From Acetofilamentum sp. (lineage in GTDB: Bacteria; Bacteroidota; Bacteroidia; Bacteroidales; JAFGXI01), in contig DYOK01000001.1 of NCBI GenBank assembly GCA_020720565.1, forward strand, positions 7,334 to 71,333: a DNA stretch of 64,000 nucleotides, in the 5' to 3' direction. Position 1 is the first letter of the stretch. Each line of letters begins with the position of its first letter. The position numbers were made by a program, and so were the translations under genes. Under the pieces are notes generated by a model. The model did not search any database, was not told the DNA's origin, and was given only the letters and a program-made list of their open reading frames with translations. This document shows positions 1-63,325 of the stretch, piece by piece.

Positions 1-1062
1 GGCGGCATTCATACCGAAGAAGAAATTAGTGCTGAGTTTATGTTCCAAGAACTCGAAGTGTCTTATGAGTTAATACCAGAAATGAGTCGAAGTATCAAAC
101 TATGGAGCGACTTTGTAGCCTATCGAAAAATTAGCAAAATAATAAAAGAATACCAACCTGACATTGTTCACACACATGCGTCGAAGGCTGGGCTCATTGG
201 TCGATTGGCTGCTATTCGACATGGTGTGCCAGTTATTATTCATACTTTTCATGGGCATGTTTTTCATTCCTATTTTGGTTGGTTAAAAACCAGAGTTTTT
301 ATTACAATAGAACAAATATTGGCTTTAAAAACCAATGCTATCATCGCAATTAGTCCATTACAATTGCAAGAATTGTCTCAAACTTTTAAAATCGCACCTA
401 CTCGGAAATTTCATTTGATACCGCTTGGTTTCAATTTAGATCCATATATCCAGAGACAGGATGAAAAACGCGAGGCTTTTCGTTCAAAATATCAATTAAA
501 AGAACAAGAAATTGCTATTTGTATTATTGGTCGCTTGGTTCCGATAAAAAATCATGCATTATTTATCGAAGCACTGGCCGAACTCAAAACAACACACCAA
601 CTAACATTTAGGGCGTTCGTGGTGGGCGATGGTTTTTTGAAAGCCGAGCTGCTTGAACAAGCCGAAAAATTAGGATTAAGCACCAGTCAAGACACAAAGC
701 CAGCCGATGTTTGCTTTACCTCGTGGATTACCGATACAGCACCAGTTTATGCGGGCTGCGACATTGTTGCTTTAAGTTCGAAAAACGAAGGGACACCTGT
801 TACCTTAATCGAAGCACAAGCGGCTCTTAAACCCATCGTAAGCACCCCTGCCGGCGGCACAGAAGATATTCTCTATCCGAGTTCGTTCCACAAAATTAGT
901 TTACCAAATCCAAAAGATTTCGCCCAAAATATTCGGGATATAATGGTACTTTTACAAACCGAGAAACCTGCTGAAGCGATTCGAAAGGTTTGTATCGATC
1001 GTTTTGCATATCAAAATTTAGTCAACAAAATGCAGATGTTATATACCAAATTATTGAAATAA
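1..1062 (+). CDS. Glycosyltransferase, GT-B fold / family 4-like (5' end outside window)
   Basis: Frame 1 is open from base 1 (GGIHTEEEISAEF precedes the first Met at 40). C-terminal half is typical of GT4 enzymes (GRLVPIKN, SSKNEGTPVTLIEAQA). Confidence 0.8.
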   Translation, partial: GGIHTEEEISAEFMFQELEVSYELIPEMSRSIKLWSDFVAYRKISKIIKEYQPDIVHTHASKAGLIGRLAAIRHGVPVIIHTFHGHVFHSYFGWLKTRVFITIEQILALKTNAIIAISPLQLQELSQTFKIAPTRKFHLIPLGFNLDPYIQRQDEKREAFRSKYQLKEQEIAICIIGRLVPIKNHALFIEALAELKTTHQLTFRAFVVGDGFLKAELLEQAEKLGLSTSQDTKPADVCFTSWITDTAPVYAGCDIVALSSKNEGTPVTLIEAQAALKPIVSTPAGGTEDILYPSSFHKISLPNPKDFAQNIRDIMVLLQTEKPAEAIRKVCIDRFAYQNLVNKMQMLYTKLLK

Positions 1063-1076
1063 GGGCTTCGACCTTA
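1060..1076 (+). repeat. Isolated repeat head (TAAGGGCTTCGACCTT) fused to the stop codon of the GT4 gene
   Basis: Matches the head of the dispersed repeat but lacks its body. Its TAA is the stop codon at 1060..1062. Confidence 0.6.
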
Positions 1077-1084
1077 ATAAGCAC

Positions 1085-1170
1085 TAAGAATAATAGAATG
1101 TCGTATTTTATTAAGCTAGAGGATTGATAAATTGCAAGTTAGAAAAACAATAAATAGGTCGAAGACCTTA
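1085..1170 (-). repeat. Dispersed ~85-bp repeat, full copy (reverse orientation)
   Basis: The reverse complement reads TAAGGTCTTCGACCTATTTATTGTTTTTCTAACT...CTAGCTTAATAAAATACGACATTCTATTATTC. Confidence 0.8.
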
Positions 1171-6440: not shown

Positions 6441-6520
6441 ATTAAAATAATTTAATATTAACTTGCTCAAAAACCTGATAATCTTTTGGTTACAAACTAA
6501 AAAAAAGGCAGAAGACCTTA
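6441..6520 (-). repeat. Dispersed repeat, diverged copy (reverse)
   Basis: The reverse complement reads TAAGGTCTTCTGCCTTTTTT..GTTTGTAACC...TTATCAGG...ATTAAATTATT. The head TAA is the stop of ORF 6518..6895. Confidence 0.6.
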
Positions 6521-7598: not shown

Positions 7599-7717
7599 AT
7601 TTTTTCTTTTGTCATCTAAAAGGCAAATCTACATTAAGTCTTTGCTTTATCAAACACATTACGTTGAAGTATTAAAGCTTTTTTCAACAAAGCAAAAAAT
7701 AACGATTGCACGAGTTT

Positions 7718-7799
7718 TAAGGCCTTCAATTTATTGGTTGTTTCTGTAACTTTCAAAATGTCAGATTTTTAGCTAAAACAATACAATATTAAAGTATAC
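7718..7799 (+). repeat. Dispersed repeat, copy with deleted hairpin arm
   Basis: TAAGGCCTTCAATTTATTGGTTGTTTCTGTAACT...CAGATTTTTAGCTAAAACAATACAATATTAAAG. Confidence 0.6.
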
Positions 7800-7871
7800 A
7801 TACTACCTAAATATTTTTCTACACTTGAATATTAATCACTATATTTATTCCATCTTTTGATTTTTGAAAAT

Positions 7872-13840: not shown

Positions 13841-15031
13841 TTATTCTCCCATTATCTCGGTAATCTTGGCTAACATCTGATCGATGCTCGCATCTGGCTT
13901 TAATTCTTTTGCTTTTGTTAAATTGGGTTTGGCCAAATTAAAATATTGTGTCATTAAATTCATGTCAGCTTGGTCGCCCCTTTTATACTGATAAACAGCT
14001 CTGTTATAATAAAGTACACCAAGATTATAGTAAATTGAATGGAGTGTGTTTTTGTCGCTTGGTTTTTGGTCGAGTGCCAAATTATAATAATTAGTTGCTT
14101 TGGAATAATATAGCTCGGCAGTACCTTGGTAGCCATTTTTTTCGAATTGTTTACCAAATTTGGTGTAGTTTCTGGCTAAAATAAATAAAATCTTAAGATT
14201 CGTTTTATTATGCTCAACCACTTTTTCCATCTGCTGAATCATATCATCGGTTTTTTCGGCATCTCGATAAATGGCAATAGCCTCGATTACAATAGCTTCG
14301 TTTTGAGGATAAAGCACCAAAGCTCTCTCAATCACTTTAATGGCTTCGGTATAATTTTTTTGTTTAGACAATATTTTAGCACTGTATAAAAAAGCTAAAT
14401 CTTTACTTTTTGTGAGTGCTGTGGGAATATCGGAATTAAAATCCATTATTTTTTGATAATAACTTAACGCCATTTCTGTCTTTCCAGTACATTCTGCCGA
14501 ATAACCCGAAAAGAAATACACATCGTTTGGATTCGAACCACTGTATTGAATAATTTGAGTAACATATTTGTCCTCGTTTTTTAAAGCTAATAAAACTTCG
14601 AAGTAACCATTAAAATATTGTTGAGCCAATTCAAATTGCTTTATAACACTGTCTTTAACAGCTGCGTTGTACGATTTTATGCCTTTGTTGTAAAAAACAG
14701 GTCCCAAATCTAACAATACATTTATTTGGTCGGAGTACATTTTTCGATCGGCGTCGATTCGAATCGATTCCTTAATGTAGGTTAAAGCTTTTTCTTCGGG
14801 ATACTGTTCCAAGTGCCCGTAGACTTCCGATTTTGCCATTTTCGTGTACACATACGAAGCTAAATACCACGTTCGAGGATCGTTTTGTTTTTGTGGATCT
14901 TTAATATTTGAATCTACTTGACGCTTTGCATCTTCGAGTTTGCCTTTCAGCAATTCAGTTTCGTTTTGTGCCAATAAGGTGTTTCCGAAATAGCCTAAAG
15001 CGATTGCAAAAAATAAAAATGTGGTTTTCAT
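13841..15031 (-). CDS. Secreted TPR-repeat protein
   Basis: Signal peptide (MKTTFLFFAIALGYFGNTLLAQ) followed by repeated TPR-like A/Y/L patterns. Confidence 0.7.
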   Translation of the reverse strand: MKTTFLFFAIALGYFGNTLLAQNETELLKGKLEDAKRQVDSNIKDPQKQNDPRTWYLASYVYTKMAKSEVYGHLEQYPEEKALTYIKESIRIDADRKMYSDQINVLLDLGPVFYNKGIKSYNAAVKDSVIKQFELAQQYFNGYFEVLLALKNEDKYVTQIIQYSGSNPNDVYFFSGYSAECTGKTEMALSYYQKIMDFNSDIPTALTKSKDLAFLYSAKILSKQKNYTEAIKVIERALVLYPQNEAIVIEAIAIYRDAEKTDDMIQQMEKVVEHNKTNLKILFILARNYTKFGKQFEKNGYQGTAELYYSKATNYYNLALDQKPSDKNTLHSIYYNLGVLYYNRAVYQYKRGDQADMNLMTQYFNLAKPNLTKAKELKPDASIDQMLAKITEIMGE

Positions 15032-15050: not shown

Positions 15051-15117
15051 TAAGGTCATCGACCTATTATTTATTTTTCAACTACTAGATTTTTATAACA
15101 TTACGATAAATAAATGC
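15051..15117 (+). repeat. Dispersed repeat, shorter copy
   Basis: TAAGGTCATCGACCTATTATTTATTTTTCAACTACTAGATTTTTATAACATTACGATAAATAAA. It lies 20 nt upstream of a minus-strand gene start. Confidence 0.65.
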
Positions 15118-15296
15118 GACCTTGTAATTTTTGAATTACTAACTTCATATAAAATTTCAATTTACTTTTCGTTTATGCAAACATAACGAAAAATACTGTA
15201 TTTCAAATCAATGTCAAAGTGTTACGCTACAAATATTTTAATGCTATTTGAAAAAAATTCAAATTTATCTATATTTTGATAAAACAGACTAATAAA

Positions 15297-16364: not shown

Positions 16365-16426
16365 ATGATGATGAGCTAGTTATTGACTTAACGGGACTTC
16401 TGAAAATTGGTTGAAAGCCTTAGTTT

Positions 16427-16456
16427 TAAAAAAGGGAAGCATTTGCTCCCCTTTTT
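16427..16456 (-). terminator. Hairpin downstream of the TPR gene 16576..17844
   Basis: GGGAAGC-attt-GCTCCCC has one mismatch and is flanked by A- and T-runs, so it could act in both directions. Confidence 0.5.
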
Positions 16457-16493
16457 GATTTTTTATACGGTGTTTAGTTCAATTAATTATGTA

Positions 16494-16578
16494 CTTTAAA
16501 TAATAAAGTCGTTTCTTTATTTAGCTAAACGTCTGGTAAAATGCCAATTATAACACAAACAAATTGGTCGAAACCTTA
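16494..16578 (-). repeat. Dispersed repeat, diverged copy (reverse)
   Basis: The reverse complement reads TAAGGTTTCGACCAATTTGTTTG...TTTAGCTAAATAAAGAAACGACTTTATTATTT. The head TAA is the stop of the TPR gene at 16576. Confidence 0.6.
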
Positions 16579-17844
16579 TTTACCATCAATTTTAGCTTTC
16601 ATGGCATCAGACTTTTCTATTTCGCCAATTCTGTAGTAAATAATTTTTAACGATTGCATCGTATTCATATCTTTTGGGTCAATTTCGTGTGCTTTTTCGA
16701 GATATGGCAATGCTTTTTTGAAAATATCGTCTGCTTGAGTCTTGATTTTTTTATACTTCTGTACATCATCAGGATCTACAGCATTGGCTTCGTCGTTTTT
16801 TGCAGCAGCTTGATTGTAATAGATAACACCAATTGCATAATAAGAATTGAAATGCTTTGGATCAATTTCGATGGCTTTTTTGTAATTTTCTTCGGCTAAA
16901 GTTAAATTTTTTAGTAAAGAATCGCTATCATAAATGGTTCCTTTTACATAATATAATTCGGGATTTGTCGGCATTAACTCAATCCCTTTATCTAAATATG
17001 CAAGGGCTTCTTTTTGTTGTTTTTTAGCCAAATAATGGTTGATAAGTTCAATCATCAAAGGCGAGCTGTTATTGGGGTATTTTTGAATACCGGCTTCTAA
17101 ACTTTTAATGTATTTTGCAGTGTCACCTTTCGACGCATATTGTTTGGCAAGAAAGTAAAAATTTCTGGCTTTTTCAGTATCATCGGCACCAAAACCAAGT
17201 TCCGACAATGTTTTGTAGTATTCAATCGCTTTGTCAGTTTTTCCAGCGTTCGAAGCGGCTAAGGCACAGAAATAAACCACTTGCGTATCGGCATTTCCAA
17301 TCATTTGAGCCGAAAACATCGATTTTTCGAACAAATCTAATGCAGCGTTATAGTCTTTTTCATCTTGATATTTAATCAATCCTTTATTAACCAAAGCAAC
17401 TGATAGTGCCGAATTGCCATTGATAAAGTCGATAATAATGGCTTGATCGACGTAATCCGTATTTTGATCCATTAAAGCTTTCGAAAATTTAATCATATCC
17501 AAATAATTATTATCGATATCTAAGGTTTGTAAAGCTGGATCTTTAAAGTTAAAAAGAATCGCTTTTTTGTAACCATCGTATGATTTTCCGATAGCATTTG
17601 GATCTAATTTTTTAAATTCTGGCTTTTCCGAAACTGCTAAAGCGTAGTAAATTTGGCCATAATACAACCATGCTCTAGCGTCTTTTTCTGTTTTAGGATT
17701 CACCACACAAGCGTCGATATTTTCTTTTGCTAAGTCAAAATCGCCATCTTTGTAATAATTATTAGCAGAAACTCTTTTGCTCGTTTGGGCATAACTAATT
17801 TGAGCTACAGCCAATAATAGGATTAAAATTTTTGTTGTTTTCAT
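16576..17844 (-). CDS. Secreted TPR-repeat protein
   Basis: Signal peptide. Multiple TPR units (AEENYKKAIEIDPKHFNSYYAIGVIYY, LEKAHEIDPKD). The stop TAA lies in a repeat head. Confidence 0.75.
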   Translation of the reverse strand: MKTTKILILLLAVAQISYAQTSKRVSANNYYKDGDFDLAKENIDACVVNPKTEKDARAWLYYGQIYYALAVSEKPEFKKLDPNAIGKSYDGYKKAILFNFKDPALQTLDIDNNYLDMIKFSKALMDQNTDYVDQAIIIDFINGNSALSVALVNKGLIKYQDEKDYNAALDLFEKSMFSAQMIGNADTQVVYFCALAASNAGKTDKAIEYYKTLSELGFGADDTEKARNFYFLAKQYASKGDTAKYIKSLEAGIQKYPNNSSPLMIELINHYLAKKQQKEALAYLDKGIELMPTNPELYYVKGTIYDSDSLLKNLTLAEENYKKAIEIDPKHFNSYYAIGVIYYNQAAAKNDEANAVDPDDVQKYKKIKTQADDIFKKALPYLEKAHEIDPKDMNTMQSLKIIYYRIGEIEKSDAMKAKIDGK

Positions 17845-20479: not shown

Positions 20480-20814
20480 TTGCTAATTTTCTGTATATCA
20501 GTATTTTCGTTATTTACAATAGAAACGACTAAGTTAATCTTTTCGTTGGAAATAGGACTTATACATTGATTGGTTTTTTCAACAAGATTTTGTTAACAAG
20601 AAAAAAGTCCTATGCCATTTATTATTATTACTTGTTATTGTTCTGCGAATAAGCACCTACAAACAACTTTTTGAAACTATTCATACGTTTATTGGGTACA
20701 AAAACCGTATTTTTTCTCAAATTATAGTACGATTCATAAAATCGTTATATTTTTGTGCGTTACAATCAGAAATACAAAGTTAATATTAATTGATTTTTCA
20801 TCAGTTGAATCATT

Positions 20815-20885
20815 TAAGGACTTCGACTTATTTATTAGTTTTGTAACTGACGTTAAAACAATATCTCAGATAAGTAATAATTGAC
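20815..20885 (+). repeat. Dispersed repeat, diverged copy in the gyrA/clpC divergent spacer
   Basis: TAAGGACTTCGACTTATTTATTAGTTTTGTAACTGACG... Confidence 0.6.
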
Positions 20886-20958
20886 AATATATTATTCTGA
20901 GTGCTTATAATAATCTAAAAATAGTATTGCGAAAAAATCATAGAAATTAAAAACAATT

Positions 20959-24964: not shown

Positions 24965-25098
24965 TTTTTTAATAGTCTAAGTTTTGTCTTATTTAAACAC
25001 GACTTAATATTTAAAAAATTATTTTTTTTCGTACGTCATTGAATAATTCGGCTAATTGTTTTACATTTACAACTCGAACCTACCTATTTGACCTTATT

Positions 25099-26328
25099 AT
25101 GAACACCTTGCCAGAACGGAACCTAACCCTCCAATCTAAGTTGTTAGAAGCACTCTATAAGCTTAATAATAGTTTCTATAAGAACCTGTCAATTAGAATT
25201 ATAACCGATCAAATCAAAAACTTTCTTGAACAAGAATTAAAGTTATCTCGTTTTGTTTTAGTTTATTTTGAAGATAACGAATGGAATCCTATTTTTTTTG
25301 AAGGTGCAAATTTTTCAAAACTTAAAACTGTAAACTTCGAAAAAGAATTAAAACCTTTTGAATGCGATAGTCCAATTCGATTTGCTCCCGAACATGAATT
25401 AAGCGCATTTTCGTTTGTTATTCCAATTCTACATAAAAAAAAACCGATCGCATACCTTTTAATTAGTGACAATTATGAACATCTAAGCATTGAGCGTCCT
25501 TGCATTCGTCATACAAGATTTATTACACATTATGCACAAGCATTTATTATGGGTATGGAAAATAAGCGGCTTTTTAAAGAAAACTCTAAAAAAGAGCGTT
25601 TTAAAACCGAACTTAATTTAGCCTCAAAAATGCAATTGATGTTAGTTAAAAGTTCTGATTTATTACCAAATAACGATACTATAGAATTTTTTACCTATTA
25701 CAAGTCATTATTCGAAATTGGGGGTGACTTTTATGACGCTTGCCAAATCGATGAGCAATCAACTGCTTTTTGTATTGCAGATGTTTCGGGAAAAGGGGTT
25801 TCTGCAGCGTTGCTAATGTCTAATTTACAAGCCAATTTAAATGCCCTTTTCCAAAACGATTTGCCTTTGCCTATTATTATCGAAAAACTAAATTCAATTA
25901 TTAACAATATCACCCAAAACGATAGATTTGTAACACTTTTTCTAGGCTGTTATCGTTCCGATACCAAAACGCTTAGGTATATAAATGCTGGACATAATCC
26001 ACCTGTTATATTTCTTTCGAATCAAATTAGCACTCAATATCTCGAAAAAGGATGTGCTGGTATTGGGATGCTCGATGATTTGGGGGAAATTGAAGTCGGC
26101 GAATTAAGTATTCCTTCTGGTTCTAAATTAATTTGTTTTACCGATGGCGTTAGCGAATCGCATACAAAATTTGGCTTAGAGTTTGGTCATACCAATTTTG
26201 TACCTTTTTTAAACCAAAGCGAAACGATACAAACTACGGTATCCAATATTCTTGCCTTTTTTAAAGAAATGGTTCCCTCGGAAAACATTATCGACGACAC
26301 CACTATTTTTGGGGTGGGATTTAAATAA
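25099..26328 (+). CDS. PP2C-family (SpoIIE-type) serine phosphatase with N-terminal GAF-like sensor region
   Basis: SpoIIE motifs GGDFYD, ADVSGKGVSAALLMS, NAGHNPP and TDGVSE. I prefer the ATG at 25099 (MNTLPERN) over 25039. Confidence 0.8.
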   Translation: MNTLPERNLTLQSKLLEALYKLNNSFYKNLSIRIITDQIKNFLEQELKLSRFVLVYFEDNEWNPIFFEGANFSKLKTVNFEKELKPFECDSPIRFAPEHELSAFSFVIPILHKKKPIAYLLISDNYEHLSIERPCIRHTRFITHYAQAFIMGMENKRLFKENSKKERFKTELNLASKMQLMLVKSSDLLPNNDTIEFFTYYKSLFEIGGDFYDACQIDEQSTAFCIADVSGKGVSAALLMSNLQANLNALFQNDLPLPIIIEKLNSIINNITQNDRFVTLFLGCYRSDTKTLRYINAGHNPPVIFLSNQISTQYLEKGCAGIGMLDDLGEIEVGELSIPSGSKLICFTDGVSESHTKFGLEFGHTNFVPFLNQSETIQTTVSNILAFFKEMVPSENIIDDTTIFGVGFK

Positions 26329-26402
26329 GATCTTCGACCTGTATTTTTGTAGTACCTTATATATCTGTACTATAGATTAAATAAATACGACATAAATTAT
26401 CC
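26326..26402 (+). repeat. Dispersed repeat copy
   Basis: TAAGATCTTCGACCTGTATTTTTGTAGTACC...TAAATAAATACGACATAAATTATCC. The head TAA is the stop of the SpoIIE-type phosphatase gene. Confidence 0.7.
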
Positions 26403-26416
26403 ATAAAACTTAAAAA

Positions 26417-26450
26417 AGAGATTCGAATAAAAGCCGAATCTCTTTTTTTT
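26417..26450. terminator. Bidirectional hairpin between convergent phosphatase and argF genes
   Basis: AGAGATTCG-aataaaagc-CGAATCTCT is a 9-bp stem followed by T8 on the plus strand and preceded by A5. Confidence 0.65.
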
Positions 26451-27507: not shown

Positions 27508-27560
27508 TGAGGTCTTAGACCTATTTATTGATTTTCTAACTAAATTTTTGTTAATAATTT
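27508..27560 (+). repeat. Dispersed repeat, truncated copy between arcC and argF
   Basis: TGAGGTCTTAGACCTATTTATTGATTTTCTAACTAAATTTTTG. It is antisense to the surrounding minus-strand genes. Confidence 0.6.
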
Positions 27561-29615: not shown

Positions 29616-29629
29616 GTTGTTAAATTAAG

Positions 29630-29718
29630 TACATAGAATAATCTAGTGTCAGACTTTATTAAGCTTAGAGCTTGTTTTAATGTACGTAACAAAAACAACA
29701 AATAGGTCGAAGACCTTA
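29630..29718 (-). repeat. Dispersed repeat, full copy (reverse)
   Basis: The reverse complement reads TAAGGTCTTCGACCTATTTGTTGTTTTTGTTACG...AGCTTAATAAAGTCTGACACTAGATTATTC. Confidence 0.75.
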
Positions 29719-30628: not shown

Positions 30629-31300
30629 ATGAAATCAATTACGTTACTTCTCTCAATTGCTTTGGTAGCAATCAATTTAAACACTTTTGCAGGCGGAAAA
30701 AAACCTGCTGGCGGATTCTCGGGCACAGTAAAATATAAAATTACTTACGAAGGTCGCGAAATATCGGCACAAGAACAAGCCCAAATGCCCTCAGAAATTG
30801 TTGAATACCATCTTAACAATATGACTCGAAAAGACATGGTAACTCCAATGTATTCGGTAATTACAATTTTAAACAACGAAACCCAAGAAACCATTCTTTT
30901 AATCGATGCAATGGGTAAAAAATTCTACATTAAAAAATCGGGCGAAGAAGTTAAAGCAGCAATGGCTAAAAACGACTCTGCAAATGCTAAACCCGAAGTA
31001 AAAATGTTAGACGGAACAAAAACGATTGCTGGTTATGTTTGTAAAAAAGCTGAATTAGTTTCGGGCGAAGAAACCACTACTGTTTTTTATACCGATGCAA
31101 TTGCAGCGGTAAATCAAGAATACAAAGAAATACCAGGCTACCCAATGTATTATAGCTCTAAAATTCCACAAATGGAAGAATTAGTAATGGTCGGCGAAGC
31201 CACAAGTGTTGACACCAAAAAGCCAAGCAAAAAGTTATTTGAGATTCCTAGCGATTACGAAGAAATGACTCCTGAAATGGCGAAACAAATGGGCATGTAA
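30629..31300 (+). CDS. Secreted protein, paralog of 29872..30555
   Basis: Signal peptide. DGTKTIAGYVCKKAE and FEIPSDY blocks are shared with the upstream gene. The stop TAA lies in a repeat head. Confidence 0.6.
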   Translation: MKSITLLLSIALVAINLNTFAGGKKPAGGFSGTVKYKITYEGREISAQEQAQMPSEIVEYHLNNMTRKDMVTPMYSVITILNNETQETILLIDAMGKKFYIKKSGEEVKAAMAKNDSANAKPEVKMLDGTKTIAGYVCKKAELVSGEETTTVFYTDAIAAVNQEYKEIPGYPMYYSSKIPQMEELVMVGEATSVDTKKPSKKLFEIPSDYEEMTPEMAKQMGM

Positions 31301-31385
31301 GGCCTGCGACCTATTTCTTGTTTTTGTAACTAGTAATTTATCAGAATTCTAGCTTTTTAAAATACGATATTAAATTATGCATAAT
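31298..31385 (+). repeat. Dispersed repeat, full copy
   Basis: TAAGGCCTGCGACCTATTTCTTGTTTTTGTAACTAGTAATTTATCAGAATTCTAGCTTTTTAAAATACGATATTAAATTATGC. The head TAA is the stop of gene 30629..31300. Confidence 0.8.
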
Positions 31386-31413
31386 ACTTTAATAGTCCAA
31401 AAAAAGAAAATTA

Positions 31414-31443
31414 AAAGGTACTAAATTTAGTACCTTTTTTTAT
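31414..31443 (+). terminator. Hairpin plus T-run after gene 30629..31300 and its repeat copy
   Basis: AAAGGTACTA-aat-TTAGTACCTTT followed by TTTTTT. Confidence 0.6.
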
Positions 31444-34038: not shown

Positions 34039-34500
34039 ATGATACAACGCATTCAAACCTTATATCTTTTAATATCGGTAGTGGTTATTAACTTGCTTTT
34101 TGTTTTGCCCATTAACGAATTAACTAATTCTGTGCATATGCTTCGCTTTACAATTTTTGGCATTTCCGAAATTGTTCACGATAAGACTGAGTTGATAATA
34201 GAAACTATACCCTTGCTGGTATTAACTAGCTTTTCTGCCCTATCGCTATTCTTTTCGATTTTTCTTTTTAAAAACAGAAGATTACAAACTAGACTTGTGG
34301 TGTATTCGATAGTTGTACTTATAGGTTTACAAACGCTTTTTATATTTTATTTGTATAAAATCACTACCCTCAATCAGACCAACTTTAGTTTCTCGCCAGG
34401 ATTGTTTTTACCTATCGTAGCCGCCTTTCTTGCCTTTCTTGCATTTCGTGCTATTCGAAAAGATGATGAATTGGTTAAGTCGACAGATAGAATAAGATAA
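34039..34500 (+). CDS. DUF4293 family membrane protein
   Basis: MIQRIQTLYLLISVV start and four TM helices are typical of DUF4293. The stop TAA lies in a degenerate repeat head. Confidence 0.7.
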   Translation: MIQRIQTLYLLISVVVINLLFVLPINELTNSVHMLRFTIFGISEIVHDKTELIIETIPLLVLTSFSALSLFFSIFLFKNRRLQTRLVVYSIVVLIGLQTLFIFYLYKITTLNQTNFSFSPGLFLPIVAAFLAFLAFRAIRKDDELVKSTDRIR

Positions 34501-34576
34501 GTGCTTCGATCTGTTTTTATTGCATAACTGCATGTGTATCATATTATTACGAAAATAATTCGTCATTAAATTATTC
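34498..34576 (+). repeat. Dispersed repeat, diverged copy
   Basis: TAAGTGCTTCGATCTGTTTTTATTGCATAACTGC...TTCGTCATTAAATTATTC. The head TAA is the stop of the DUF4293 gene. Confidence 0.6.
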
Positions 34577-34730
34577 AAAGTATTAATTTTAATTTTTGGC
34601 TTGGTTTCTGTTAAAGATTGTTAAGACTATTCACATTGGGAAATAGTCAGTTTTTTCGTATCAAATTTTAATTAGATTTGCGAAACAAATCAAGTTTTTT
34701 TTGACAATCTTTTAAAACCAGTTTAAAATT

Positions 34731-37449: not shown

Positions 37450-38589
37450 ATGCTCATGAATTTTTTCGAAAAACTTTGTTTTCTATATTTTATGATAATT
37501 GACCATTTAGAAAATTCTCATTCGTTTCCTAACCTTAGCGTAAATAAAGGTAAAGATGTAAGTTCTACCAATCCACAATCGGTTAATGATTTTCGAGCCA
37601 AGCGTCAAAAACAAAACGATGCCATATCTTATTTTAATGCCATAAGACTAGGCCATATTCCTAGCCTAAGCAAAGCCATTACACTGATTGAAAGCACCCG
37701 TCCTGAGCATCAAAAACTGGCTTCCGAAATTGTTAACCTCTGTCTACCCTACTCCGGAAATGCCATGCGTATTGGAATAACTGGTGTACCCGGTGTAGGA
37801 AAAAGTACATTTATCGAAACTTTTGGTTTAAGTTTGGTTCAGCAGGGGAAAAAGATTGCGATTCTGGCAATAGACCCAAGCAGCGAAAAGTCGAAAGGTA
37901 GTATTTTAGGCGATAAAACCAGAATGGAGGAGCTTGTAAAATCTCCATTTGCATTTATTAGACCGTCGCCTTCGTCTGGAACTTTGGGTGGTGTAGCTCG
38001 AAAAACAAGAGAAAGTATTATTCTTTGCGAAGCAGCAGGTTTTAACATGGTATTAATCGAAACCGTTGGAGTTGGACAATCAGAAATCGCTGTCCATTCG
38101 ATGACAGACTTTTTTCTCCTGTTGATGCTGGCTGGTGCTGGTGACGAACTTCAAGGTATCAAAAGAGGAATTATGGAAATGGCCGATGGTATTGCCATTA
38201 CTAAAGCTGATGGTGACAATTTATTGAAAGCTCAAGCTGCTGTATCCGAATTTTCAAACGCATTACATCTTTTTCCGCCAACTAGTTCTGGTTGGATTCC
38301 AAAAGTCTTAGCCTGTTCTTCAACAGAAAATACTGGTATACAAGAGCTTGGCAGTAATATTGAACTGTTTTTTACAAGGCAAACCGAAAATGGACATCTC
38401 CAAATAAAGCGTATCTCACAATCAAAATATTGGATGCACGAAAACATTAAAGCTTTGATTTTAGATGATCTTTACCGTGATCCGAAAATATCGGAACAAC
38501 TAATCACAATCGAAGAGCAACTAATTAATCAAAAAATTGATCCTTTTAAAGCCTCTGAAATAATCTTTGAAATGTATCGTTCTAAATAA
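37450..38589 (+). CDS. meaB: Methylmalonyl-CoA mutase-associated GTPase MeaB (ArgK/LAO-AO type G3E GTPase)
   Basis: LSKAITLIES, P-loop GVPGVGKSTFIE, ETVGVGQSE and ITKADGD. The start may be 37492. The stop TAA lies in a repeat head. Confidence 0.88.
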   Translation: MLMNFFEKLCFLYFMIIDHLENSHSFPNLSVNKGKDVSSTNPQSVNDFRAKRQKQNDAISYFNAIRLGHIPSLSKAITLIESTRPEHQKLASEIVNLCLPYSGNAMRIGITGVPGVGKSTFIETFGLSLVQQGKKIAILAIDPSSEKSKGSILGDKTRMEELVKSPFAFIRPSPSSGTLGGVARKTRESIILCEAAGFNMVLIETVGVGQSEIAVHSMTDFFLLLMLAGAGDELQGIKRGIMEMADGIAITKADGDNLLKAQAAVSEFSNALHLFPPTSSGWIPKVLACSSTENTGIQELGSNIELFFTRQTENGHLQIKRISQSKYWMHENIKALILDDLYRDPKISEQLITIEEQLINQKIDPFKASEIIFEMYRSK

Positions 38590-38672
38590 GGTCTTCGACC
38601 TATTTCTGGTTTATGTAACTAGCTATTTATCAGATTTATAGCTTTATTAAATGCGTCAATAAATTATTATTC
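38587..38672 (+). repeat. Dispersed repeat, full copy
   Basis: TAAGGTCTTCGACCTATTTCTGGTTTATGTAACTAGCTATTTATCAGATTTATAGCTTTATTAAATGCGTCAATAAATTATTATTC. The head TAA is the meaB stop. Confidence 0.8.
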
Positions 38673-38691
38673 AAAGTACAATAAGTTCTTA

Positions 38692-59074: not shown

Positions 59075-60850
59075 ATGAAATCATTTTTTAAATTTACATT
59101 AGCCTCAATGTTAGGCTTTATTCTAGCTGGTATACTGCTAATTTTTGTAGTTGCAGGCATAATAGGTGCTATGATAGCGGCTGCCGGCGATGACACTGTT
59201 ACTCAAAAACCTAAAACAGTGTTAACAATCGATTTGACGCAAGGTGTTACAGAACGCACATCGAAAAATCCATTAGAAAATTTTAATTTTCAGGCGTTTA
59301 AATCTGAAAATAAAATCGGCTTAAACGATATTTTAAGCCAAATTGAAAGAGCTAAAACAGATGAAAATATTAAAGGAATTTACATCAACTCTAGCTCAAT
59401 CGAAGCAGGCATTTCTACTGTTGAGGAAATTAGAAATGCATTAATCGACTTTAAAACCAGCGGTAAGTTTATCTTATCATATAACGAGGTGTATTCTCAA
59501 GGCGCATATTATTTGGCTTCTGTATCGAATAAAATTTATCTTAATCCAGAAGGTTTAGTCGATTTTAAAGGGCTTTCGGCTCAAATTATGTTTTATAAAG
59601 ACGCACTCGATAAATTAGGCGTTGAGCCCATTATTATTAGAGGTAAAAACAATAAATTTAAAAGTGCGGTTGAGCCTTATATGTATAATCATATCAGTGA
59701 AGCCAACAAATTGCAAACATTAACTTATATGGGCTCTATTTGGAATCATATTTTAAAGGGAATTTCTGATACTAGAAAAATTTCTGTTGATCAACTCAAT
59801 GTTATGGCTGATAGCATGTATGTGAATAGTGCTAAAGCAGCCAAAGAATACAAACTGGTCGACGATCTAAAGTATTACGACGAAGTATTAGCGGAGCTTA
59901 AAAAACTTTCTGACACTCCCGAAAAAGATGATATCAATTTTATGTCAATTTCTGAATATTCAAAAGTACCTCAATTAGCAACAGGCAAAGGAGTTTCTAA
60001 AAATAAAATTGCAGTAATCTATGCCACTGGTCAAATTGATATGGGCAAAGGAAGTGCAGAAGAGATCGGTTCTGAGGGCTTGTCGTCGGCCATTCGCAAA
60101 GCCAGACTTGATACTACAGTAAAAGCAATTGTTTTGCGTGTTAATTCACCTGGTGGTAGTGCTTTAGCCTCTGAAGTGATTTGGAGAGAGGTTGTTTTAG
60201 CCAAAAAAGCAAAGAAAGTTGTGGTTTCTATGGGAGATGTAGCTGCTTCTGGTGGATATTATATCGCTGCGCCCGCCGATAAAATCTATGCCAATCCGGT
60301 CACCATTACAGGATCAATTGGCGTATTTGGAATTTTGTGGAATGGTCAAAACTTAATGAATAAAATTGGTATTAATACCGATGCTGTAAATACCAATGCA
60401 CATTCTGATATAGGGAATATGTTTCGTCCGATGAGCGATGGCGAATATGCTGTTATTCAAAAAAGTGTCGAAGATATTTATGATGTCTTTTTAGGACACG
60501 TTGCCGAAGGCCGAAATAAAACCAAAGCCGAAATTGATTCTATTGGACAAGGCCGTGTTTGGAGTGGTTATAACGCCAAAGAAATTGGTCTTATTGACGA
60601 GTTCGGTGGATTAAACGATGCCATTAAAGGAGCTAAAGAATTAGCAAAATTAGATGATTATAGAGTGGTTGAATATCCTGAACAAAAAGAGCCTTTCGAG
60701 GAAATTATGGAGAGTTTTGGTGCAAAAGCACAGCTTTATTTTACCGAAAGTCAACTTGGTGAAACATTCAAATATTATCAACAAATTCAGAACTTAACTA
60801 AACTAAGAGGCGTTCAAGCTAGAATTCCTTTTGTTATCGAAATTAAATAA
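59075..60850 (+). CDS. sppA: Signal peptide peptidase SppA, 67K type
   Basis: N-terminal TM and two ClpP/crotonase-like halves. Catalytic region VVVSMGDVAASGGYYIA. The stop TAA lies in a repeat head. Confidence 0.92.
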   Translation: MKSFFKFTLASMLGFILAGILLIFVVAGIIGAMIAAAGDDTVTQKPKTVLTIDLTQGVTERTSKNPLENFNFQAFKSENKIGLNDILSQIERAKTDENIKGIYINSSSIEAGISTVEEIRNALIDFKTSGKFILSYNEVYSQGAYYLASVSNKIYLNPEGLVDFKGLSAQIMFYKDALDKLGVEPIIIRGKNNKFKSAVEPYMYNHISEANKLQTLTYMGSIWNHILKGISDTRKISVDQLNVMADSMYVNSAKAAKEYKLVDDLKYYDEVLAELKKLSDTPEKDDINFMSISEYSKVPQLATGKGVSKNKIAVIYATGQIDMGKGSAEEIGSEGLSSAIRKARLDTTVKAIVLRVNSPGGSALASEVIWREVVLAKKAKKVVVSMGDVAASGGYYIAAPADKIYANPVTITGSIGVFGILWNGQNLMNKIGINTDAVNTNAHSDIGNMFRPMSDGEYAVIQKSVEDIYDVFLGHVAEGRNKTKAEIDSIGQGRVWSGYNAKEIGLIDEFGGLNDAIKGAKELAKLDDYRVVEYPEQKEPFEEIMESFGAKAQLYFTESQLGETFKYYQQIQNLTKLRGVQARIPFVIEIK

Positions 60851-60905
60851 GTCTTAGACCTATTTTTAGAATTAACTAGCAGATTTTTAATCTTATAAAT
60901 TAGTA
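60848..60905 (+). repeat. Dispersed repeat, shorter copy
   Basis: TAAGTCTTAGACCTATTTTTAGAATTAACTAGCAGATTTTTAATCTTATAAATTAG. The head TAA is the sppA stop. Confidence 0.65.
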
Positions 60906-60936
60906 CACAAACAATATTGTTTTCATAAAACATAAT

Positions 60937-62828: not shown

Positions 62829-62841
62829 GTTCAAAATCATT

Positions 62842-62905
62842 TAAGGTCTTCGACCTATTTATTATTTATCACTACTTTCCGAAACTTTAAAACGGAAATT
62901 ACTTG
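62842..62905 (+). repeat. Dispersed repeat, copy with divergent body
   Basis: TAAGGTCTTCGACCTATTTATTATTTATCACTAC... The head is perfect and the body diverges. Confidence 0.65.
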
Positions 62906-62990: not shown

Positions 62991-63071
62991 TAAGGTCTCC
63001 GACCTATTTATTGGTTTGTAACTATCTATTTATTAGTACTCTAGCTTAAAAAATACGACATTAAATTATTC
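62991..63071 (+). repeat. Dispersed repeat, full copy
   Basis: TAAGGTCTCCGACCTATTTATTGGTTTGTAACTATCTATTTATTAGTACTCTAGCTTAAAAAATACGACATTAAATTATTC. Confidence 0.8.
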
Positions 63072-63325
63072 TAACTACTTATTTAAGCTTTGAATACATT
63101 TGTAGCATCAATGGGAAGGTCAATAGAGTGGAAATGCCACCCGGAAAAACATTGTTCGATATAGATAAATTCCCTGTTCAGACAGATTTGTTCAGCGTAA
63201 TTAATTGATTATGTATGAAATACATTTTTGAAAATTATTTTTTTTACAATTTGCAAAGAGACAAATCTTACACTACATTGGGCACAGTGATGACTTCAAA
63301 GCTTTTTAAGTTTTTCTAGTTTGCT

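Follow-up and report, generated by a model that had tools for sequence, protein, structure and literature searches.

A putative TA-flanked, MITE-like repeat located on the stop codons of genes in an uncultured Bacteroidales genome

INTRODUCTION

In a 64,000-nt stretch of the genome of Acetofilamentum sp. (Bacteroidales; GenBank assembly GCA_020720565.1, contig DYOK01000001.1, positions 7,334 to 71,333), hereafter referred to as the window, the first three bases (TAA) of a dispersed repeat of approximately 92 nt are at the same time the stop codon of eight genes. How does a repeat come to end eight genes exactly at its own first bases? A preliminary description of the window offered three explanations: that the element inserts at or next to TAA stops, that it has replaced the original stops and altered the C-termini, or that it is selected as an RNA element at the 3' ends of mRNAs. 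The comparisons described below favor the first of these. The repeat adds a new family to a well-known type of genomic parasite and does not represent a novel way of ending genes, and we put at about even odds (a probability of roughly 0.5) the reading that it is a small non-autonomous element of the miniature inverted-repeat transposable element (MITE) type, flanked by TA, which inserts on native stop codons without changing the proteins.

RESULTS AND DISCUSSION

The repeat and its coincidence with stop codons

A profile search with nhmmer detected 16 copies or fragments of the repeat in the window and five more in the adjacent 8.8 kb to its left in the same genome, giving 21 copies in 72.8 kb. 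The 19-mer head, TAAGGTCTTCGACCTATTT, was found at 11 window sites with at most three mismatches, compared with 0.01 sites expected by chance. The repeat makes up about 18% of the intergenic DNA within the window (G+C content, 34.6%); it is shorter than 300 bp and non-coding, with stops in all frames. Each unit runs from the head, which comprises a 5-bp hairpin (AGGTC-TTC-GACCT) and a T-rich run, through a moderately conserved body to a tail ending in ...AGTACTTA (also given as ...ATTATTCnAAGTACTTA). In the 21 aligned copies, similarity begins with TAAGG and ends with CTTA. The head agrees with the reverse complement of the tail at 17 of 24 positions, and the two share the outermost TAAG/CTTA. 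The repeat can be written as TA-AGGTCTTCGACCTATTT...AGTACT-TA; its putative terminal inverted repeats are imperfect, and TA is present at both ends of nearly all copies.

All eight head-TAA stop codons listed in the preliminary description were confirmed at their coordinates (Table 1), and each ends an in-frame, co-oriented open reading frame (ORF) with 126–604 open codons upstream. Pfam supported the gene names at seven of these loci (GT4, TPR, SpoIIE, DUF4412, DUF4293, MeaB and S49/SppA), and the eighth, a small ORF without a Pfam match, belongs to a conserved family of membrane proteins of about 100 aa (152 matches; best identity, 61%). The sequence AAA-TAA-GG, previously counted at five of these loci, is present at three (1060, 16578 and 38587), and five read AAA-TAA-G.

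Comparison with relatives lacking the repeat

We compared the window with contigs of the closest relatives found, which are uncultured Bacteroidales (identities of 81% for ClpC, 75% for SppA and 64–65% for MeaB) and are syntenic with three parts of the window (roughly 11–31, 31.5–49 and 57–64 kb). No copy of the repeat was found in 106.5 kb of this syntenic DNA, and every element-bearing spacer with a syntenic counterpart is about 45–260 nt longer in the window (Table 1). For example, the convergent meaB and pyrF genes overlap by 4–14 nt in the relatives (L040 1355–1358 and L042 2612–2625; other loci examined are likewise cited by L numbers) and are separated by 102 nt in the window; judged from these sequences, it is the insertion of the repeat that separated the two genes in the window lineage.

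The protein ends were the same as those of orthologues or homologues without the element in all six informative genes. The DUF4293 protein has 153 aa in the window and in the relative, both ending in DRIR before TAA; the TPR protein has 422 aa compared with 422 and 421 aa in its orthologues, which end in GK or GQ before TAA; and the SpoIIE-type phosphatase ends in GVGFK, compared with GVEFK before TAA in the orthologue. The DUF4412 paralogue ends in KQMGM in both the window and the relative, the orthologue ends being KQMGM or ASMGL before TAA, and SppA has 591 aa in the window and in all 12 of its nearest homologues. For the small membrane protein, where protein sequences were compared, the homologue alignment reaches the last residue. 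In the five genes for which the DNA of relatives was read, the stop codon is TAA and is followed by unrelated sequence. The end of MeaB falls within the length range of its orthologues, and the C-termini of pyrF and the argB-like gene, which also lie beside copies, are native too. A derivation of the argB-like C-terminus at 27551 from a copy was considered and rejected, because this C-terminus is identical to that of the orthologue.

Native terminators have also been kept. At the TPR, SpoIIE and DUF4412 loci, the order is the stop codon, the element, 0–32 nt of native spacer and then a strong native terminator. The unchanged protein ends, the native TAA and the terminators downstream together indicate that the element is an insertion on a native stop codon, with the entire native 3' untranslated region (UTR) lying beyond it. 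The explanation by insertion at or next to TAA stops is thus supported: relatives without the element end at the same residue and continue from TAA into unrelated DNA and then the native terminator. As a description of the sequence, the statement that the stop codon comes from the repeat head is literally correct, yet the stop, on comparison with the relatives, is the gene's own.

These data leave almost no room for the idea that the element replaced the original stops and thereby truncated or extended proteins, which is refuted for six of the eight genes (DUF4293, TPR, SpoIIE, DUF4412, SppA and the small membrane protein) and highly implausible overall; the native pyrF and argB-like C-termini also speak against it. 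MeaB, its best case, is 7–9 residues shorter than the two closest homologues, in which the 3' end overlaps pyrF; other MeaB homologues end as early or earlier.

Excess of copies at stop codons

With random placement in the 6950 nt of intergenic DNA, the chance of lying at a stop codon is well under 1% per copy. A stricter expectation can be taken from the uninvaded relatives, in which 8.9% of the TA sites outside coding sequence lie in stop codons; if only non-coding TA sites are allowed, the probability of at least 8 of the 16 window copies lying on stops is 2.6e-5. None of the five copies in the adjacent 8.8 kb is on a stop codon, which gives 8 of 21 for this genome (P = 2.8e-4). In other genomes, 3 of about 27 copies are stop-linked, and the pooled value is 11 of 48 (P = 2.8e-3), against 8–9% under a null model of TA or TAA targets. 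The excess of copies at stops is real, and the striking 8 of 16 is partly luck of the window. The preliminary description named two findings that together would count against its interpretation, and one of them, identical orthologue ends, was obtained, while the other, a lack of enrichment at stops, was not.

The sequence preceding the stop codon is also biased. The last sense codon is AAA in 5 of the 8 element-bearing genes, compared with 4 of 35 other genes ending in TAA (p = 0.0055); in the relatives, 18% of non-coding AAATAA sites are stop codons. As a separate observation in a single case, the SpoIIE stop of a relative without the element already reads AAA-TAA-GGT, like the first bases of the head (L046 15311–15330); the target may here resemble the end of the element.

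Proposed insertion at TA and the nature of the mobilizing enzyme

We propose that the element spread through the short spacers between the genes of a single uncultured Bacteroidales lineage sampled in sulfidic caves. It would integrate at a TA dinucleotide, preferably one flanked by runs of A or T, and the TA would most likely be duplicated. If insertion falls on the TA of the TAA or TAG that ends a gene, TAA would be restored by the A with which the element begins, so that the reading frame would keep its ancestral last residue and the element would only lengthen the 3' UTR ahead of the native terminator. The excess at stops would then reflect this target preference together with the removal of those insertions that, the spacers being very short, disrupted a promoter, leader or terminator, and these two factors can account for much of it.

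Several features of the ends are in agreement with this proposal. In variant heads, the first two positions vary (CAA, ATA, TTA, TGA or AAA for the initial triplet) and the A at position 3 never does, which places the boundary of the element after TA rather than after TAA. In each of the five window copies that are clearly stop-linked, the tail TA is followed by A, as expected if the TA of a TAA was duplicated. Longer target duplications (TAA, TTA, TTAA or NTA) were rejected copy by copy, five tails reading TAT against TAA heads. As a separate observation, the sequence AATCATT (7 nt) precedes two heads in the window (20808–20814 and 62835–62841), and L034 has ATCATTT at this place; either a preference for certain targets or an extended left end in a subfamily could account for it.

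On this proposal, a gene for a DDE transposase (IS630 or IS5-type) bounded by TAAGGTCTTCGACC... would be expected, but a search of about 610 kb of partly redundant DNA revealed no transposase whose ends match. The ORFs beside heads are housekeeping genes, and an inward-facing pair of heads in L008 flanks cheB/cheD and no transposase. The polarity of the insertions also weighs against TA-targeted insertion. Heads lie exactly on stops in 11 of 13 head-first copies adjoining a 3' end, and tails lie 8–29 nt from convergent stops seven times and never on one (0/7; p = 0.0005); a symmetric TA target predicts no such polarity, because a tail-first insertion would also rebuild TAA. Likewise, shortened copies retain the head and not the tail, a stop-linked copy of a sister family (L012 1254; see below) has C after the tail TA and does not fit a TAA or TAG target, and no intraspecific empty site was found, since all 10–14 contigs from the cave population share the architecture and carry every copy. 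Empty-site alleles that would define the target-site duplication, as the preliminary description had suggested, were sought, and none could be aligned at the right-hand junction.

It is possible, if somewhat doubtful, that the same mobile repeat, likewise sitting on native stops with unchanged proteins, is moved instead by a single-strand HUH/Y1 enzyme, such as a transposase associated with repetitive extragenic palindromes (REP-associated tyrosine transposase, RAYT) or one of the IS200/IS605-type. In such a system, TAA would be the left target, GGTC-TTC-GACC the recognition hairpin and ...CTTA the right cleavage site, no target duplication would be made, and the repeat would be a REP/REPIN-like family of Bacteroidales. 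This would explain the polarity: TAA always precedes the head, no constraint is seen on the right flank, and stops coincide with heads only. Solo and tandem heads are frequent, as are REP singlets and clusters; the sister family folds as one long, REPIN-like hairpin (z = -3.6); and genes of the Bacteroidetes RAYT subclass 2.6 are flanked by atypical weak hairpins without GTAG, often with 3-nt loops, copies of which occur elsewhere in the genome (PMC6006769, Table S1). In Escherichia coli, roughly half of the REPs counted in one survey (cited in PMC12306157) are no more than 15 nt away from a stop codon. Against these points, neither a Y1 gene nor an HUH/Y motif was detected by regular expressions in six-frame translations of the loci examined, the window family has no convincing right-end hairpin, and the invariant A3 behind variable positions 1–2 of the TAA sets the boundary after TA. 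The strand distribution (12 plus and 4 minus copies in the window) points toward a strand-specific process, yet the bias is not significant (p = 0.08), and, in what is a weak test, the plus strand is C-rich, so that most copies are off the strand predicted by targeting of the lagging-strand template.

More doubtful still is the specific form of this alternative, in which a strand-specific HUH/RAYT-type system recognises the head as its hairpin and integrates immediately 3' of TAA, the repeat representing an undescribed class of REP with a TAAG foot. If true, homing onto stop codons in one orientation would be a safe-harbour strategy, with the commonest stop codon of the host as the attachment site.

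No support for a selected 3'-end RNA signal

Could the head or the whole element be kept by selection as an RNA signal at 3' ends, acting as a terminator, a stabiliser, a translational brake or a source of 3'-UTR small RNA? Intact heads pass a minimal terminator pattern (a 5-bp stem with three G-C pairs and a T-rich run), heads outlast bodies in shortened copies, all copies are fixed in the cave population, and, according to work cited in PMC12306157, translation in E. coli is affected by hairpins lying no more than 15 nt from a stop codon. This third explanation of the preliminary description nevertheless appears improbable to us and is unsupported by the structural data. The head hairpin is weak (-4.1 kcal/mol) and mostly decayed, being intact in one of the seven full stop-linked copies and predicted to be absent from three of them, and canonical, stronger native terminators have been kept just downstream at three loci. 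RNAalifold applied to the 21 copies retained only the three innermost pairs of the head hairpin, with no compensatory change, and single copies of the window family fold no better than shuffled sequences. A search of the window against Rfam 15 gave no match at gathering thresholds and nothing relevant at permissive ones; a weak match to CRISPR-DR19 inside the meaB coding sequence (38458–38497, minus strand; 21 bits, E = 0.22) was judged to be due to chance. Moreover, the orthologues of relatives do without the element, and copies with a perfect head are rarely on stops (3/32), compared with 8 of 16 decayed copies (p = 0.003). A difference in hairpin stability between stop-linked and other copies was significant only when pattern-ascertained loci were included (window alone, p = 0.26).

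A second context of the heads lies away from stop codons. At least 13 off-stop copies have the head, and never the tail, 10–35 nt upstream of the ATG of a divergent long ORF (Table 1). The Bacteroidetes promoter motif (TTTG ... TAnnTTTG) was looked for by eye on both strands of the consensus, and no sequence came acceptably close to it; the best candidates deviate at two positions of the -7 box or have a spacer of 16 nt. A sigma-70 promoter scan is uninformative in this phylum.

Related repeats and truncated copies

The genes of the window and their closest protein matches assign it to an uncultured Bacteroidales. The contigs of the window recur in metagenomes and metagenome-assembled genomes (MAGs) labelled SulCav, TB_PC08 or GS09, that is, from sulfidic-cave samples; MAGs of this lineage include GCA_022736635.1, GCA_020718325.1 and GCA_974003235.1. 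A sister family of about 105 nt, found in Bacteroidales MAGs, has an identical 25-nt head and 8-nt tail on a different body (L007 4847–4951, L016 1847–1951, L034, L012 and L009 of MAG JAOZVK01, GMC9.metabat2.98; also JAOZTL01, GMC7), and six metagenome contigs carry variants with the same head and tail on different bodies; a scan of metagenomes gave only six further heads. Common ends on different bodies are the pattern expected of ends that are recognised by a transposase. In folding, the sister family forms a single long hairpin (z = -3.6 and -2.2), which the window family does not.

Full copies of the window family are also present in MAGs from the same type of sample (SulCav isolates) titled Chloroherpeton thalassium, Porphyromonas sp. 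and Draconibacterium orientale (L008, L021, L022 (DYPF01), L023, L032 (DYSC01), L010 and L019 (DYMH01)); with a low-GC Bacteroidales repeat inside them, the organism labels of these MAGs look unreliable.

Head-only fragments number four or five, and no tail-only fragment was found in the 72.8 kb of this genome. One truncated repeat overlaps the 3' end region of a gene for an HpaII-type restriction endonuclease, about 7.5 kb to the left of the window start. Apparent nested insertions at L018 and L013 were examined, and no clean empty site of the host element was resolved in either.

Table 1. Copies of the repeat and associated features in the window and at other loci, with spacer lengths in the window and in relatives lacking the repeat
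Feature	Position	Strand	Remarks
Hairpin-only head unit, TAAGGGCTTCGACCTTA, 17 nt	1060–1076	+	Head TAA is stop of GT4 gene (ends 1062); abuts tail of inverted full copy
Full copy, best match to family model	1079–1170	-	Head 32 nt upstream of ATG of divergent gene at 1203
Strongly decayed copy	6441–6520	-	Head TAA (6520) is stop of gene for ~100-aa membrane protein (6518 to ~6835)
Full copy, off stop	7718–7806	+	Divergent intergenic region
Full copy	15051–15141	+	Head 19 nt from ATG of divergent TPR gene (13841–15031)
Native intrinsic terminator of TPR gene, AAAAAGGGGAGCAAATGCTTCCCTTTTTT	16425–16454	-	32 nt beyond element tail; orthologous to terminators of relatives
Copy	16490–16578	-	Head TAA (16578) is stop of 422-aa TPR gene (16576–17844)
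Full copy	20815–20906	+	gyrA/clpC divergent spacer; tail 52 nt upstream of clpC ATG
Copy	26326–26411	+	Head TAA is stop of SpoIIE-type phosphatase gene (25039–26328)
Native bidirectional terminator hairpin	26412–26448		Directly after element tail
Head-only shortened copy (TGAGG...)	27508–27550	+	argB-like/ornithine carbamoyltransferase (OTCase) operon spacer; head 33 nt from OTCase ATG
Full copy	29627–29718	-	Tail 11 nt past enoyl-CoA hydratase stop; supplies no stop
Copy	31298–31389	+	Head TAA is stop of DUF4412 paralogue (30629–31300)
Native terminator hairpin	31413–31438		21 nt after element tail
Decayed copy	34498–34584	+	Head TAA is stop of DUF4293 gene (34039–34500)
Full copy	38587–38683	+	Head TAA is meaB stop (37450–38589); tail ends ~8 nt before convergent pyrF stop (38692)
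Strongly decayed copy	60848–60920	+	Head TAA is stop of sppA (59075–60850)
Head-only fragment, perfect 19-mer	62842–62868	+
Full copy, off stop	62991–63080	+
Head-only or tandem-head sites, other loci	L068 8604–8652 and 1239–1292; L018 150–228; L013 about 7634–7670		In addition to window sites 1060–1076, 27508–27550 and 62842–62868
HpaII-type restriction endonuclease gene	L068 187–1263
Heads upstream of divergent ATG, window	1170; 15051; 27508	-; +; +
Head upstream of divergent ATG	L068 8652	-
Heads upstream of divergent ATG, other loci	L008 7895; L010 401; L015 4596; L018 228; L021 1707; L028 893; L030 2564; L032 4378; L038 509; L039 4372
Spacer with copy 15051–15141			265 nt in window; 7 / 115 nt in relatives
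Spacer			211 nt in window; 77 / 63 nt in relatives
Spacer			479 nt in window; 229 / 244 nt in relatives
Spacer			141 nt in window; 97 nt in relatives
Spacer, argB-like/OTCase			76 nt in window; 18 / 28 nt in relatives
Spacer			181 nt in window; 81 / 89 nt in relatives
Spacer, sppA-queG			86 nt in window; 18 nt in relative

Implications

In annotation, the copies call for masking as a repeat family; the stop codons that they overlap are genuine, and the protein ends need no correction. The repeat also illustrates that a small mobile element can saturate a compact genome, apparently with little harm, since a stop codon whose TA it enters is restored. The head-first polarity, the survival of heads alone and the 25-nt head shared across uncultured Bacteroidales provide a handle for finding the enzyme that moves the repeat, the candidates including the poorly characterised Bacteroidetes RAYT subclass.

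Comparison with known systems

Among known systems, palindrome-associated elements derived from IS200/IS605 resemble the repeat in having a left end 3' of a short fixed sequence, a hairpin near this end and a strand-specific orientation. In the repeat described here, by contrast, the hairpin and the junction are 2 nt apart, too close for a guide segment to fit between them, the window family is without a right hairpin, and TA is present at both ends.

The REP, BIME (bacterial interspersed mosaic element) and REPIN families with their RAYTs, as described in PMC6006769 and PMC12306157, share a short hairpin, a fixed 5' foot, an abundance in intergenic regions and an arrangement as singlets, tandems and inverted doublets. 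In E. coli, many REPs are situated no more than 15 nt from a stop codon (PMC12306157). The repeat differs in its foot, which is TAAG and not GT[AG]G, in its 5-bp hairpin and in its conserved body of about 75 nt with a tail, and no RAYT gene was found in the DNA searched; the Bacteroidetes RAYT subclass 2.6 is known to lack GTAG (PMC6006769).

RUP of Streptococcus pneumoniae and other bacterial MITEs of the IS630/Tc1-mariner type, such as the Correia/NEMIS elements of Neisseria, are likewise non-coding intergenic sequences of about 100 nt with a high copy number and TA at both ends, and they have terminal inverted repeats (PMC2229807, PMC5896051). Bacterial MITEs typically have TA at their termini (PMC5896051), and RUP inserts at TA (PMC2229807). 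Like the present repeat, the RUP/Correia-type MITEs contain stops in every frame and are missing from related genomes (PMC2229807, PMC5896051). In contrast to RUP and Correia, no IS630-type parent with matching ends was found here, the putative terminal inverted repeats are weak (17/24), insertion is polar in that only the head lies on stops, and the window family is without the long stem-loop typical of their transcripts.

The QMITE1 and QMITE2 elements of Coxiella burnetii provide a parallel at the 3' ends of genes. As with the present repeat, functional genes are affected only at their 3' ends, with overlaps down to 1–3 bp and little change in protein size (PMC5896051). QMITEs overlap gene 3' ends by a variable 1–50 bp (PMC5896051) and alter the C-terminal residues, whereas here the overlap is exactly the stop codon and the residues are unchanged.

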